From: Escherichia coli | GTDB taxonomy: Bacteria > Pseudomonadota > Gammaproteobacteria > Enterobacterales > Enterobacteriaceae | DNA length: 64,000 nt | Reading direction: 5' to 3' (one strand) | NCBI RefSeq assembly: GCF_041886205.1 | Contig: NZ_CP169029.1 | In this document: positions 5,749 to 45,288 of the stretch, one piece after another | Layout: each line of letters opens with the position of its first letter | Numbering within the stretch: position 1 is the stretch's first letter | Translations under genes and position numbers: made by a program | Notes under the pieces: generated by a model | The model's database searches: none | Told to the model about the DNA's origin: nothing | What the model saw: only the letters and a program-made list of their open reading frames with translations

Positions 5749-6792
5749 TTATCCACGTAGTGTAGCCGCAAAATCCAGCATACGATTGAGCGGCACCAGC
5801 GCCCTCTCTCGCAGCCTTTCATCAACATGAACCTCGTGATTGCTTCCTTCCTGTTCTAATGCCTCTGCGATGGCCTGAAGGCCATTCATGGCCATCCACG
5901 GACAATGCGCGCAGCTGCGGCAGGTTGCACCCTCACCTGCGGTTGGTGCTTCCAGTAACTCTTTATCTGGCACCGCCTGCTGCATTTTGTAGAAAATACC
6001 CCGATCGGTTGCCACAATAAGCCTCTGATGTGGCAATGTTTTCGCAGCAGCGATCAGTTGACTGGTGGAACCGACCGCATCCGCCATATCGACAATAGCT
6101 TGTGGTGATTCTGGATGCACCAGTATGGCAGCATCCGGGTATTCTTCTTGCAAGCGGGTTAACGCCTGAGTCTTAAATTCATCATGCACAATACAGGCAC
6201 CCTGCCAGCATAGAATGTCTCCACCCGTCTGTTTTTGCACGTAACGCCCCAGATGTTTGTCGGGTGCCCAGATGATTTTTTCACCCAAACTATCAAGATG
6301 ATCAATAAGTTCGACGGCAATGCTTGAAGTTACCACCCAATCTGCGCGCGCTTTTACCGCAGCAGAAGTGTTGGCGTAGACGACGACAGTACGATCGGGA
6401 TGGGCATCGCAAAATGCGTTAAATTCTTCAACAGGGCAGCCGAGATCCAGTGAACATTCAGCCTGAAGTGTCGGCATCAGAATTGTTTTTTCCGGACTGA
6501 GAATTTTGGCGGTTTCTCCCATAAATCTCACCCCAGCGACTAACAAAGTAGAAGCGGGATGCTTTGCACCGAAGCGCGCCATTTCCAGAGAATCAGAAAT
6601 ACAGCCACCGGTTTCTTCTGCCAGTTGTTGAATTTCGGGATCGGTATAGTAGTGGGCAACCATCACCGCATTACGTTCTTTTAGCAGACGTTTTATCTTC
6701 TCGCGGTAATACGCTTTTTCATCAATGCTTAACGGCGTCGGCTTCGGGGGGAAAGGATAAATCGCCGTGTCTGGATCAAACATTACGCTCAT
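5749..6792 (-). CDS. nadA: quinolinate synthase A
   Basis: 347 aa ORF beginning [18 protein letters not shown]; matches NadA; nadA-pnuC operon arrangement. Confidence 0.93.
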
Positions 6793-7037: not shown

Positions 7038-7066
7038 CAAAAAAGCGCCTTTAGGGCGCTTTTTTA
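7038..7066 (-). terminator. rho-independent terminator of the lysT tRNA operon
   Basis: gcgcc/ggcgc hairpin with T tract on the minus strand immediately after the last tRNA. Confidence 0.7.
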
Positions 7067-7069
7067 CAT

Positions 7070-7145
7070 TGGTGGGTCGTGCAGGATTCGAACCTGCGAC
7101 CAATTGATTAAAAGTCAACTGCTCTACCAACTGAGCTAACGACCC
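7070..7145 (-). tRNA. lysQ: tRNA-Lys (UUU)
   Basis: Reverse complement matches E. coli tRNA-Lys including anticodon loop (ttaaaag = cUUUUaa) and CCA end. Confidence 0.93.
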
Positions 7146-7277
7146 CTTGCGGGATTATGCTGCTTTAATCATTCAGGATGGTGGGTCGTGCAGGATGACT
7201 GGACTTCGTCTCGCCCTTCGGGCCGTTGCTAACGCAACGTTATCCTTCACGTTCTCTACCAGTAACCACCTTTAAAT

Positions 7278-7353
7278 TGGTGGGTCGTGCAGGATTCGAA
7301 CCTGCGACCAATTGATTAAAAGTCAACTGCTCTACCAACTGAGCTAACGACCC
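7278..7353 (-). tRNA. lysZ: tRNA-Lys (UUU)
   Basis: Identical tRNA-Lys copy. Confidence 0.93.
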
Positions 7354-7499
7354 ATATGGGTGTTACCTGAAAGATTTCTACTCGGAACCAATCTTTAAAA
7401 TTGGTGGCTCGTGCAGGATGACTCGCTTCGCTCGCCCTACGGGCCGTTGCTGGCGTAACGTTATCCTTCACGCTTAACATCTGAGTTTGATGTTAAAAC

Positions 7500-7575
7500 T
7501 GGTGGGTCGTGCAGGATTCGAACCTGCGACCAATTGATTAAAAGTCAACTGCTCTACCAACTGAGCTAACGACCC
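7500..7575 (-). tRNA. lysY: tRNA-Lys (UUU)
   Basis: Identical tRNA-Lys copy. Confidence 0.93.
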
Positions 7576-7578
7576 GAG

Positions 7579-7654
7579 TGGTGGGTGATGACGGGATCGA
7601 ACCGCCGACCCCCTCCTTGTAAGGGAGGTGCTCTCCCAGCTGAGCTAATCACCC
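7579..7654 (-). tRNA. valZ: tRNA-Val (UAC)
   Basis: Reverse complement matches E. coli tRNA-Val1 (anticodon region ccttgtaaggg) with CCA end. Confidence 0.92.
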
Positions 7655-7705
7655 GATACTGCGCTGGATACTACAAACTACTTCCACCGAACCCACCGTA
7701 ATTAG

Positions 7706-7781
7706 TGGTGGGTCGTGCAGGATTCGAACCTGCGACCAATTGATTAAAAGTCAACTGCTCTACCAACTGAGCTAACGACCC
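7706..7781 (-). tRNA. lysW: tRNA-Lys (UUU)
   Basis: Identical tRNA-Lys copy. Confidence 0.93.
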
Positions 7782-7783
7782 GG

Positions 7784-7859
7784 TGGTGGGTGATGACGGG
7801 ATCGAACCGCCGACCCCCTCCTTGTAAGGGAGGTGCTCTCCCAGCTGAGCTAATCACCC
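7784..7859 (-). tRNA. valT: tRNA-Val (UAC)
   Basis: Identical tRNA-Val copy. Confidence 0.92.
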
Positions 7860-7994
7860 AATACTACGCTGGATACTACAACTAACTATGTTAGTGGTGG
7901 GTCGTGCAGGATGACTCGACTTCGTCTCGCCCTTCGGGCCGTTGCTGATGCAACGTTATCCTTCACGTTTTACTACCGCTTCCACCTTAGCGAT

Positions 7995-8070
7995 TGGTGG
8001 GTCGTGCAGGATTCGAACCTGCGACCAATTGATTAAAAGTCAACTGCTCTACCAACTGAGCTAACGACCC
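7995..8070 (-). tRNA. lysT: tRNA-Lys (UUU)
   Basis: Identical tRNA-Lys copy; first gene of the operon on the minus strand. Confidence 0.93.
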
Positions 8071-8234
8071 ACTTTTTCGTTGCTTTCGGTTTGTTTGATA
8101 TCCCGTGGCAACGGCGGCATATATTACTGATTTCAGACTTGAGCGCAACAAAAATTTCGATGCAGATCACTCAACTGCTTATGATTCGCACGACACGACC
8201 AGAAATAATGCGACTTCTGGTCGTGTGTTATGCA

Positions 8235-9026
8235 TTACATCGCGTTCAGACGTTTTTGTGCCTGTTTAGCGCCATCAGTACCAGGGTATTTACTGATAAC
8301 CTGCTGGTATACGGCTTTCGCTTTTGCGGTGTCACCTTTGTCCTGCATGATGACGCCGACTTTAAACATCGCATCAGCAGCCTTTGGTGACTTCGGATAG
8401 TTTTTCACTACCGAAGCAAAATAGTACGCCGCATCATCTTTTTTACCCTTGTTGTAGTTTAACTGACCCAGCCAATAATTGGCGTTTGGCAGGTAAGTTG
8501 AATCAGGGTAATTTTTGATGAAATTCTGAAATGCCACCATTGCGTCATCCTGGCGGGATTTATCCTGCACCAGCGCAATAGCTGCATTGTAATCCGTGTT
8601 TGCATCGCCGCTTTTCACCGGCGCGCCAGCATTCGCAGTACCAGCATCAGCTGTCGGCGTCGTTGATGCCGCCGCACCGCTTTGATCGCTGCTGGTTGAT
8701 TGCGCCGCTGCACCACCGCTGCTGAGGCTGTCGATCTGCAACAGGATCTGCTTTTGCCGCTCCACGACCTGATTCAGTTGATACTGATTTTCCTGAATCT
8801 GACCACGCAGGGAATCAATATCGGATTGATTATCAGAAAGTTGTTGCTGGAGTTGGGTTAAAAGCTGGCTGTGAGCATTAGAAATACGCTCAAGTTGAGT
8901 GACGCGGTCTTCGACCGAGCCTGAGCCGACACTACTGATTGGTGCCTGAGCAAAAGCGGCCCAGGGGGCCGCTATACCAACCAGTAACGACAGACTCAAT
9001 AGTTGATGTCTGAAGTTACTGCTCAT
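8235..9026 (-). CDS. cpoB: cell division coordinator CpoB (YbgF), TPR periplasmic protein
   Basis: 263 aa, signal peptide, coiled-coil Q-rich region then TPR repeats; last gene of tol-pal cluster. Confidence 0.9.
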   Translation of the reverse strand: MSSNFRHQLLSLSLLVGIAAPWAAFAQAPISSVGSGSVEDRVTQLERISNAHSQLLTQLQQQLSDNQSDIDSLRGQIQENQYQLNQVVERQKQILLQIDSLSSGGAAAQSTSSDQSGAAASTTPTADAGTANAGAPVKSGDANTDYNAAIALVQDKSRQDDAMVAFQNFIKNYPDSTYLPNANYWLGQLNYNKGKKDDAAYYFASVVKNYPKSPKAADAMFKVGVIMQDKGDTAKAKAVYQQVISKYPGTDGAKQAQKRLNAM

Positions 9027-9035
9027 GCAATTCTC

Positions 9036-9581
<546 letters not shown>

Positions 9582-40761: not shown

Positions 40762-40935
40762 CCCGTAGGCCTGATAAGACGCGTTAAGCGTCGCATCAGG
40801 CATCGCTTGTCGGCTGCGGCGCGAGCGCCTTATCCGACCTACATTGGTGCTCCCCGTAGGCCTGATAAGACGCGTAAGCGTCGCATCAGGCTTCAATTGC
40901 CGGAGAAGGCGATAATGCCTTATCCGGTCTATAGT
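40762..40935. repeat. REP/BIME cluster between sucB and sucC
   Basis: Tandem inverted REP units (gtaggcctgataagacgcg...cgcatcaggc repeated). Confidence 0.75.
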
Positions 40936-45165: not shown

Positions 45166-45288
45166 ACGCCTGATGCGCTGCGCTTATCAGGCCTACGGGT
45201 AATGGCTTGTAGGCCGGATAAGGCGTTCACGCCGCATCCGGCACTGGTTGCCTGATGCGACGCTTGCGCGTCTTATCAGGCCTACGGT
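45166..45288. repeat. REP/BIME cluster between sucA and sdhB
   Basis: Multiple REP units (gcctgatgcg...cttatcaggcctac). Confidence 0.75.

Follow-up and report, generated by a model that had tools for sequence, protein, structure and literature searches.

The repeated spacers of an Escherichia coli lysT operon are short-form copies of the tRNA-linked repeat family RtT

We found that positions 7070-8070 of the window, meaning the whole 64,000-nucleotide stretch of E. coli DNA that was analysed, hold an ordinary lysT operon of seven tRNA genes, and that the three long repeated spacers of this operon are copies, in short form, of the long-known tRNA-linked repeat (TLR) family, Rfam RtT. The feature is already known, as the TLRs of Egan & Landy 1978 and Rudd 1999, both as summarised in PMC8144298. 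An account in which the elements mimic tRNA ends for processing and are deleted between direct repeats is, taken as a whole, likely to be correct for these spacers.

ARAGORN calls exactly seven tRNA genes in this interval, all on the minus strand, and the Rfam tRNA model concurs with every call, in agreement with the first-pass annotation of five identical tRNA-Lys(UUU) and two tRNA-Val(UAC) genes. Named by comparison with K-12, the tRNA-Lys(UUU) genes are lysT (7995-8070, 79.2 bits with the Rfam tRNA model, identical to K-12 lysT), lysW (7706-7781), lysY (7500-7575), lysZ (7278-7353) and lysQ (7070-7145), and the tRNA-Val(UAC) genes are valT (7784-7859) and valZ (7579-7654). By direct string comparison, the five tRNA-Lys genes are identical to one another and to those of K-12, and the same is true of the two tRNA-Val genes. 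The single-strand order Lys-Val-Lys-Val-Lys-Lys-Lys is shared by the ARAGORN calls and the K-12 annotation, while the features under BLAST matches and in fetched loci place cpoB upstream and nadA downstream. The operon had been described as arranged like that of K-12, which holds for gene order but not for spacer content, since K-12 carries a fourth and a fifth element. A simple sigma-70 scan found no promoter reaching threshold at lysT, and because of this we give only a candidate identified by eye on the minus strand (8113-8148), with TTGCGC (8148-8143), a 16-nt spacer, TAATAT (8126-8121) and a G+C-rich discriminator GCCGCC (8118-8113). The putative operon terminator (7039-7065, minus strand), a hairpin GCGCC-CTAAA-GGCGC (7059-7045) followed by a U run, was likewise read from the sequence, its hairpin having been missed by a simple terminator scan. 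In K-12, the operon is co-transcribed and processed by RNase P, with transcription continuing to lysQ, and its described terminator is identical in sequence to that of the valU operon (PMC4176162).

The long spacers lie at 7860-7994 (135 nt), 7354-7499 (146 nt) and 7146-7277 (132 nt) and, much as had been noted, share a core of ~55 nt. Adjoining the core in each is a single 18-nt copy of the tRNA-Lys 3' end, ATCCTGCACGACCCACCA, which matches the gene at 18/18 positions at 7912-7895 and 7196-7179 and at 17/18 at 7419-7402. A 19-nt motif from the core occurs three times against 0.17 expected, a count reached in 0/100 shuffles. Since the operon is on the minus strand, the tRNA-3' copy comes last in the transcript, and each filled spacer reads as tRNA, ~27-nt trailer, core and tRNA-3' copy. 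The earlier description of three spacers beginning with an 18-20 nt copy followed by ~50 nt of shared sequence was thus right about the copy (18 nt) and the core, but gave their order as seen on the plus strand. All three elements begin one base past a tRNA-Lys CCA, and the 80-82 bp between the direct repeats in the window hold no ORF. A tRNA pseudogene is ruled out, as neither ARAGORN nor the Rfam tRNA model makes a call within any spacer and there is no recognisable cloverleaf with an anticodon arm.

Element 1 is a 100-nt unit (7895-7994, minus strand) that is missing in some strains and was delimited using Rfam RtT, its fold, comparison with the empty site and its Citrobacter orthologue. 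It comprises a 27-nt trailer (7994-7968) and a folded element of 73 nt (7967-7895) ending in the 18-nt copy (7912-7895), and its fold is significant, with a z-score of -3.77 and no equally stable shuffle among 200. The remaining 35 nt of this spacer (7860-7894) form the valT leader, which makes up the entire lysT-valT spacer in strains without element 1 (loci L009 and L010). Element 3 (7179-7277, minus strand), a 99-nt unit assigned from Rfam RtT and its fold, likewise has a 73-nt folded element (7251-7179) ending in the copy (7196-7179), with a z-score of -4.30 (0/200 shuffles); in its empty form, found at loci L002, L004, L005 and others, this spacer is 33 nt. Element 2 (7402-7499, minus strand), a 98-nt unit assigned from Rfam RtT and compared with K-12, has a 5' hairpin TTAACATC/GATGTTAA (7496-7474) and a 71-nt element (7472-7402) ending in the one-mismatch copy (7419-7402). 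It carries two private substitutions, one in the tRNA-3' copy and the other breaking a pair of hairpin H1, and its fold has lost significance (z -1.22, with 22/200 shuffles equally stable), which fits weak constraint. The empty lysW-valZ spacer (7655-7705, 51 nt), identified by comparison with K-12, has no significant fold (z -0.34).

The covariance model for RtT (RF00391, gathering cut-off 45 bits) scores element 1 at 60.2, element 3 at 56.7 and element 2 at 47.8 bits, although model positions ~1-58 fall on the upstream tRNA-Lys gene, whose T arm is borrowed across a 44-nt insertion, so that the 5' third of the model is covered through this T arm and not within the spacer element. TLRs are defined by a 3' end of 18-19 bp identical to that of the upstream tRNA or rRNA, and K-12 has 22 of them at ten loci, with one to five at each (PMC8144298). 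All three of our elements lie directly after a tRNA gene, end in a tRNA-3' copy and resemble other TLRs, their core being common to the tyrT units and to 120 loci of other genomes. They represent a short form of ~72 nt without the GGAUGAGAA...GGUUCGA domain. Hammerhead and kink-turn readings of the conserved GGAUGAGAA, made by eye, were set aside, as the GGAUGAGAA motifs belong to the long form and not to the window copies. RefSeq places its 'RtT sRNA' annotation on long-form copies only, with none under short-form matches, and the 59-nt core matches in 5261/5426 E. coli genomes with no annotation beneath. This annotation gap in RefSeq E. coli genomes leaves short-form TLRs unannotated, and readers therefore meet them as unexplained repeats.

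Across 27 short forms, RNAalifold predicts a closing helix and three hairpins. In this alignment 95.0% of cells pair, compared to 87.5% in shuffles (the observed value was reached in 0/500) and 28-50% in slid registers, and among 31 long forms double changes occur in 14/28 pairs against 8.1 expected (0/500). The alignments thus indicate that the fold is preserved through compensatory base changes, although in the closing helix the covariation could reflect copied strands of the tRNA itself and not compensatory evolution. A conserved, covarying fold would suit a working regulator, namely a released TLR RNA acting as a sponge or protein-binding small RNA that reports tRNA-operon transcription, by analogy with the proposal for RrA/B/F (Hfq, CsrA) and the demonstration for the unrelated 3'ETS-leuZ. 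Processing and in vitro binding of Hfq and CsrA are documented for the 5S-linked relatives (PMC8144298), and Klebsiella RNA-seq detects RtT RNAs and shows them to change (PMC4147364). We nevertheless consider such a role rather unlikely, since predicted CsrA binding is <0.01 for the 19 tRNA-operon TLRs (PMC8144298), the short form is without GGA-loop hairpins, and E. coli strains lose the elements freely. A stringent-response role was dropped because PMC8144298 reports that this claim for tyrT RtT was withdrawn in 1994.

The core occurs in many Gammaproteobacteria. In the 120 loci of other genomes, it follows Lys, Tyr, Arg(ACG), Arg(CCG), Pro(CGG), Pro(UGG) and Gln tRNAs as well as 5S rRNA, and is itself followed by 17-22 nt of the upstream gene's own 3' end; in the copies that follow 5S genes in other genera, the closing strand complements the copied 5S end. 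For the lysT-valT and lysY-lysZ elements, orthologues flanked by homologous sequence exist in Citrobacter and Enterobacter, and orthologous elements whose trailers and flanks are both homologous occur in these two genera and in Pluralibacter. Every host tRNA has the T loop GTTCGAATCC; Ser, His and Glu tRNAs also have it without being hosts, while Val tRNA, with the T loop GTTCGATCCC, is never a host. The duplicated block begins at (A)ATCC within the T loop and stops 0-4 nt past CCA, with an extra copy of the T-stem 5' half plus TTCGA in long forms. A related module free of tRNA occurs in Pectobacterium, both singly and in a 74-bp tandem array, and in Alloalcanivorax, with co-varying stems. It is conceivable, if rather improbable, that the TLR core (H1-H2-H3) belongs as a single branch to a broader family of dispersed, structured intergenic repeats, and that it was captured at GTTCGAATCC-type T loops and then retained to mimic tRNA ends, with a closing helix that follows each host gene, so that TLRs would be functional or self-propagating RNA elements rather than debris.

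To follow the operon across strains, we joined both unique flanks into one query and took the interval length from the match span, because the internal repeats broke up the BLAST matches of the whole operon to E. coli genomes beyond interpretation. Of 5426 E. coli genomes, 5407 carry the cpoB and nadA flanks, and the length classes of the interval between these flanks were decoded to architectures in a sample of 59 complete genomes. Sixteen length classes or architectures were present in this sample, with 0-5 TLRs and 5, 6 or 7 tRNA genes, which supports the earlier suggestion of a hotspot for copy-number change. The operon is without any TLR in 13 of the 59 genomes; TLR-less strains are common, and the elements are therefore dispensable. 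K-12 has five TLRs, four in spacers and one after lysQ, compared to three in the window. Its lysW-valZ spacer is 149 nt long, against 51 nt here, with a 98-nt TLR exactly at the tRNA 3' end, and the TLR tail unit beyond the lysQ terminator is absent here, single in K-12 and double in some strains. Each empty spacer is exactly the portion of the filled spacer that follows the 18-nt copy, and by this comparison the empty spacers look like a precise loss of 98-100 bp between 18-bp direct repeats. The differences among E. coli strains are best explained by old elements having been lost precisely and tRNA genes having been lost in blocks, and not by recent creation of spacers. The cpoB-nadA locus is among the more variable small intervals of E. 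coli, which affects assembly, typing and the dosage of tRNA-Lys and tRNA-Val genes, and the range of natural strains, from those that have every element to those without any, offers ready material for asking whether TLRs do anything.

Such variation is also what would be expected if the spacers were inert debris of unequal crossing-over or duplication in the operon, with the tRNA-3' fragments as leftovers whose sole effect is to make copy-number change easy. Copy number varies widely among the sampled E. coli, many strains are without every element, one window copy (element 2) is decaying, and TLRs of tRNA operons are without any known function (PMC8144298). We judge this reading distinctly unlikely, given that in many genera the core stands beside 5S rRNA or one of six other tRNA species and always carries the 3' end of the gene concerned, that double changes preserve its helices to an extent well above that of shuffled and slid controls, and that orthologous copies have outlasted the split of E. 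coli, Citrobacter and Enterobacter although the flanking direct repeats favour loss. The first-pass annotation had seen in the spacers a footprint of past unequal recombination or duplication; the repeats do make the locus structurally unstable, but RtT family membership, other host genes, orthologues and a conserved fold show more than local debris.

The extent of the duplicated block, from (A)ATCC to CCA plus 0-4 nt, matches T-loop attachment sites, and TLRs might by analogy be small non-autonomous mobile elements, or scars of integrative elements, whose insertion in the T loop duplicates the stretch from there to the 3' end, as tRNA-targeting integrases do. The common T loop of the hosts, the exclusion of Val, the second T-stem copy in long forms and the tRNA-free module of Pectobacterium and Alloalcanivorax all point the same way. 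Even so, this origin appears very unlikely, as only 98-156 bp separate the repeats, with no integrase, transposase or ORF, orthologous positions across genera indicate vertical descent and loss, and Ser, His and Glu tRNAs do not serve as hosts although their T loop is identical to that of the hosts. A scan of viral contigs returned 12 matches, four of them TLRs next to tRNAs of the host and the others fortuitous matches within coding sequence; with no kilobase-scale element or integrase between the repeats either, a phage or integrase link was rejected. Finally, that the spacers code for a tpr-like small peptide rich in arginine, tpr being annotated within the tyrT RtT repeat of K-12, or act as intrinsic terminators or attenuators in the operon, as hairpin-plus-T sites flagged by a simple scan at 7224-7239, 7445-7460 and 7940-7955 would have it, is almost certainly wrong, because there is no ATG-started or conserved frame, stops occur in all frames, the core frame differs from that of tpr and the 71- and 73-nt elements shift it, while the flagged sites lie on the plus strand, antisense to the operon, the minus-strand hairpins have no U run, and K-12 operon transcription reaches lysQ (PMC4176162).

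In the processing-mimic and direct-repeat-deletion account that we favour, each TLR would be part of the polycistronic tRNA precursor. Elements 1 and 3 are predicted to fold on themselves into a compact structure of three hairpins and a closing helix, in which CGUGAAGGAU would pair with the first ten bases of the 18-nt copy (T-loop AUCC, T-stem 3' strand and acceptor 3' strand) and the remaining ACCCACCA would be left single-stranded, resembling a tRNA 3' end. The copied end may then let the tRNA 3'-finishing enzymes excise the TLR as a separate piece, possibly by RNase E cleavage just past CCA followed by exonuclease trimming, an idea borrowed from the 5S-linked RrB (PMC8144298), and RNase P would free the next tRNA. 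In the DNA, the genuine tRNA 3' end and its 18-bp copy form a direct repeat 98-100 bp apart, with the five identical 76-bp Lys genes as longer repeats. Strains of E. coli would differ at this locus because recombination or slippage between these repeats can precisely remove a single TLR or remove a block of tRNA genes.

The closest known counterparts are the lysT TLRs of K-12, which are the same elements at the same locus, each directly after a tRNA-Lys gene, with the 18-nt tRNA-Lys ending and near-identical sequence; they differ in number, five compared to three, and the lysY-lysZ copy of the window has two private substitutions. T-loop class attachment sites, set out by Williams in 2002, reportedly have inserted DNA flanked by a direct repeat of the tRNA stretch that begins in the T loop and reaches the 3' end. 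The lysT elements resemble these in layout, but have only ~80 bp between the repeats, no integrase and, in the viral-contig scan, no phage link. RtT/rttR of tyrT (RF00391; Bosl & Kersten 1991, as cited in PMC8144298) shares the hairpins CGUUGC-loop-GCAACG and GCCC-GNA-GGGC and a third, variable hairpin, and it also ends in the upstream tRNA's 3' end, to which its closing strand is complementary. In contrast, the tyrT copies are of the long form (~119 nt), with the GGAUGAGAA...GGUUCGA domain and another hairpin, and have a tRNA-Tyr end, 178-bp tandem units and an overlap with the annotated tpr ORF. The 5S-linked TLRs RrA, RrB and RrF show the same family hallmark but lie between two rrn operon terminators, have GGA motifs and bind Hfq and CsrA in vitro, whereas tRNA-operon TLRs are predicted not to bind CsrA (PMC8144298). 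Lastly, 3'ETS-leuZ (Lalaouna et al. 2015, as summarised in PMC8144298) is unrelated in sequence and structure, and its function as a RyhB/RybB sponge is there said to have been shown by experiment; as a released TLR would be, it is a by-product of tRNA operon processing that could have an independent life.

ARAGORN called seven tRNA genes at 7070-8070, all on the minus strand and in the transcript order Lys(UUU), Val(UAC), Lys, Val, Lys, Lys, Lys, and the Rfam tRNA model concurred. The five Lys genes are identical to each other, as are the two Val genes, and the first-pass annotation was right to liken the set to the K-12 lysT operon. The operon is flanked by the cpoB ORF (8235-9026, minus strand) on one side and nadA (5749-6792, minus strand) on the other, and the sequence is matched at 100% in a number of complete E. 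coli genomes. Spacer lengths are 135, 2, 51, 3, 146, and 132 nt, and each of the three long ones carries a copy of the 18-mer ATCCTGCACGACCCACCA, the final 18 nt of tRNA-Lys (one mismatch in the copy at 7419-7402). A common core adjoins each copy, and its 19-nt motif was found at three sites in the window (64 kb) vs 0.17 expected by chance. Both components had been described at first pass, but in the order seen from the plus strand; on the transcript strand, the tRNA is followed by a ~27-nt trailer, the core comes next, and the tRNA-3' copy is last. Elsewhere in the window, Rfam matched the CpoB/ybgF intercistronic thermometer between pal and cpoB (RF02782, 142 bits; 8997-9135, minus strand). 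Above-threshold matches at 45212-45282 (plus), 40768-40839 (minus), and 62672-62714 (minus) were to the REP-derived naRNA4, with 88 and 64 bits, and to ES036/CssrF, with 75 bits.

The three long spacers scored 60.2, 56.7, and 47.8 bits against the Rfam RtT model (RF00391), which has a cut-off of 45 bits. In the Rfam alignment, the genuine similarity comprises two hairpins (H1, CGUUGC-loop-GCAACG; H2, GCCC-GNA-GGGC), a variable third hairpin, and a tRNA-like end. The model's 5' third found a match only in the T arm of the tRNA-Lys upstream, across a 44-nt insertion, which makes the lysT spacer elements a short form of this family, whose members have been named tRNA-linked repeats (TLRs; PMC8144298). 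The K-12 tyrT locus contains four long-form units, each terminating in the 19-nt 3' end of tRNA-Tyr. A viral contig (IMGVR_UViG_2660238126_000002) carries a tyrT-type TLR with its 5' half swapped for unrelated sequence, as if truncated where a prophage or insertion begins or ends. When we searched with a 59-nt core of the short form, 5261 of 5426 genomes gave matches, with a median of 6 places per genome (range 1-11), and we found no annotation under these matches. The identity of the operon and of its elements is established. We rejected tpr-like coding in the spacers, tRNA pseudogenes (by ARAGORN and the Rfam tRNA model), and internal terminators, the flagged sites being on the wrong strand for the operon. 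Those terminator-like sites, H1 followed by TTATCCTTCA on the antisense plus strand, occur in all three elements (7224-7239, 7445-7460, and 7940-7955) and are probably a by-product of the element sequence.

We scanned for the core motif with one genome per species, which gave at least 120 loci, and ran ARAGORN on the listed loci. Among the matches listed, the gene found 50-125 nt upstream of the core is that of tRNA-Lys(UUU), Tyr(GUA), Arg(ACG), Arg(CCG), Pro(CGG), Pro(UGG), or Gln(UUG), in many Enterobacterales genera as well as Gilliamella, Marinobacterium, Amphritea, and Photobacterium. In nearly all of these matches, 17-22 nt after the core reproduce exactly the 3' end of that particular tRNA, beginning at (A)ATCC of the T loop, and core copies upstream of tRNA-Thr(GGU) or tRNA-Asp are 5S-linked TLRs whose last bases copy the 3' end of 5S rRNA. 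A rule for the whole family is thereby shown, in which an element bears the 3' end of the gene upstream of it. Unequal crossing-over confined to the lysT operon does not account for this pattern, and the spacers, read at first pass as a recombination or duplication footprint, are not local debris. Every host tRNA among the matches listed shares the T loop GTTCGAATCC; tRNA-Val (T loop GTTCGATCCC) was not found as a host there, nor were the Ser, His, and Glu tRNAs that have the host-type T loop. The shared T loop, the start point within it, and the second T-arm half in long forms are suggestive of a mobile or integrative origin, but an enzyme gene is absent, our viral-contig scan gave no phage link, and the elements occupy orthologous positions across genera.

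Within each element, we found complementarity between the 5' strand and the end that the element has copied, with CGUGAAGGAU facing AUCCUGCACG for Lys (one A·G mismatch), GGGGAAGGAU facing AUCCUUCCCC for Tyr, GGGAGGAU facing AUCCUCCC for Arg, ACGGCAGGAU facing AUCCUGCCGU for Gln, and GGCAGUU facing AACUGCC for 5S rRNA. In 5S-linked TLRs of Superficieibacter, Pseudocitrobacter, and Siccibacter (loci L023, L088, L064, L066, and L067), the 5' strand GGCAGTT is complementary to the copied 5S end (AACTGCCAGGCAT), and therefore the closing helix tracks the host gene even when that gene is not a tRNA. For 27 distinct Lys and Arg short forms, RNAalifold predicted this closing helix and three hairpins, with standard pairs in 95.0% of cells vs 87.5% in column shuffles (0/500 as high) and 28-50% when the register was slid by 1-3 columns, and a covariation score of 0.142 vs 0.042. 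The long forms (n=31) showed both-side changes in 14 of 28 pairs vs 8.1 in shuffles (0/500) and 94.8% pairing vs 33-41% in slid registers. The search pattern itself set H1 and H2, which are therefore uninformative on pairing conservation, and closing-helix covariation could mirror copying of the tRNA's own strands; in long forms, an alternative pairing is possible, with a T-arm-like hairpin (GNAGG-AUGAGAA-CCUNC) plus a T arm interrupted by the core. Neither the search pattern nor tRNA copying applies to the third hairpin or to the additional hairpins of the long forms, which do co-vary, and the fold is shown to be conserved. In the window, the elements of the lysT-valT (7895-7994) and lysZ-lysQ (7179-7277) spacers adopt the consensus fold (z-scores -3.77 and -4.30), while that of the lysY-lysZ spacer (7402-7472) has no significant fold (z -1.22). 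The latter carries two substitutions absent from K-12 and the other fetched strains, G to A in H1 (giving CGTTAC) and C to G in the tRNA copy (giving ACGAGCC); since genomes 100% identical to the window exist, it is a lineage variant and not a sequencing error.

To follow the locus within E. coli, we built a single query from the unique 2-kb sequences that flank the operon and took the match span as interval length. Both flanks were found together in 5407 of 5426 genomes, and 59 of the 5407, a non-random sample spread over the match ranking, were divided by length into 16 classes (958-1697 bp); the locus is a copy-number hotspot, as proposed at first pass. Architectures were decoded from one representative per class, the remaining members being assigned by length. 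The window type, K-135-V-2-K-51-V-3-K-146-K-132-K with TLRs in the 135-, 146-, and 132-nt spacers, spans 1444 bp (9/59 genomes); the K-12 type has all four long spacers filled and one 156-bp unit after lysQ (1697 bp; 11/59); and the type with no TLR, K-35-V-2-K-51-V-3-K-48-K-33-K, spans 1147 or 1118 bp (13/59). Further architectures included those with two tail units, six genes (O157:H7 and one other type), or five genes (KVKKK), and five of the 59 genomes had fewer than seven tRNA genes. Because an empty spacer is in every case exactly what follows the 18-nt copy in its filled form, the differences all amount to one clean unit of 98-100 bp with an 18-bp direct repeat as its boundary, demonstrating a clean presence/absence polymorphism of TLRs. 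Overall, the first-pass annotation was correct in observation and half right in interpretation.

Several other differences were seen at this locus. The 156-bp unit after lysQ, present in 0, 1, or 2 copies by strain (K-12 locus L001; tails of L002, L004, and L007), carries a second copy of the operon terminator. It contains a palindrome made from the T arm of tRNA-Lys together with the reverse complement of that arm (GATTCGAACCTGC A GCAGGTTTGAG), 8 bp of which are missing from one strain. Further downstream of lysQ, K-12 has a 28-bp insertion containing ATCCTGCAC, and the lysQ-nadA interval occurs in 248-bp and 277-bp forms. At the valT position, E. coli O157:H7 F8798 has a one-base variant of tRNA-Val(UAC), GGGGGGCGGCGG vs the standard GGGGGTCGGCGG, which is annotated as tRNA-Val nonetheless.

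In two Citrobacter species, the lysT-valT element shares its trailer and the valT leader downstream of it with that of the window, and a 5'-hairpin element like that at lysY-lysZ is also present in Enterobacter cloacae, Pluralibacter, and others, with a co-varying hairpin stem. Since lysT elements recur in other genera, they predate E. coli, and its empty sites are best read, on this comparison, as precise deletions, although gene conversion between Lys genes may have produced TLR gains. Such deletions could result if the 18-bp repeats recombine or slip against each other, and losses of tRNA genes if the identical 76-bp Lys genes cross over. The K-12 lysT operon is a single transcript that RNase P separates starting from the 3' end, in a study that does not mention the repeats (PMC4176162). 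For the 5S-linked TLR RrB, the copied end has been proposed to direct RNase E cleavage, defining the RNA 3' end (PMC8144298), and by analogy the lysT copies might act likewise. TLRs may have a regulatory role; those of tRNA operons are predicted non-binders of CsrA.

A related three-hairpin module with no nearby tRNA occurs in Pectobacterium and Alloalcanivorax (L078 3220-3476, Pectobacterium betavasculorum; L077 ~6785; L085; L068-L070, Alloalcanivorax xenomutans). It consists of CAACGTTGC-loop-GCAACG, GCCCGNAGGGTGA, and then a hairpin with GGA in its loop. In Pectobacterium, the module is arrayed in tandem, with 3.5 copies of a 74-bp unit, and also occurs singly between gene ends and terminators; Alloalcanivorax has the same architecture, with stems that differ and co-vary. 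The module reached only 21 bits against the RtT model, below the 45-bit cut-off, and had a weak RsmY-like match (14 bits). These tRNA-free occurrences hint that the TLR core is part of a wider repeat family, and they are the sole loose end with some novelty in this analysis.

Otherwise, the feature is already known. According to PMC8144298, TLRs were first observed in 1978 by Egan and Landy, and the Rudd 1999 catalogue, as reported there, lists 22 copies spread over ten K-12 loci, each of which has one to five; TLRs are marked by a 3'-terminal 18-19 bp that exactly repeats how the tRNA or 5S rRNA upstream ends. The five TLRs that we count at K-12 lysT, four in spacers and one after lysQ, agree with the maximum of five per locus in the published catalogue, and our elements thus belong to an already described TLR/RtT family at this locus.
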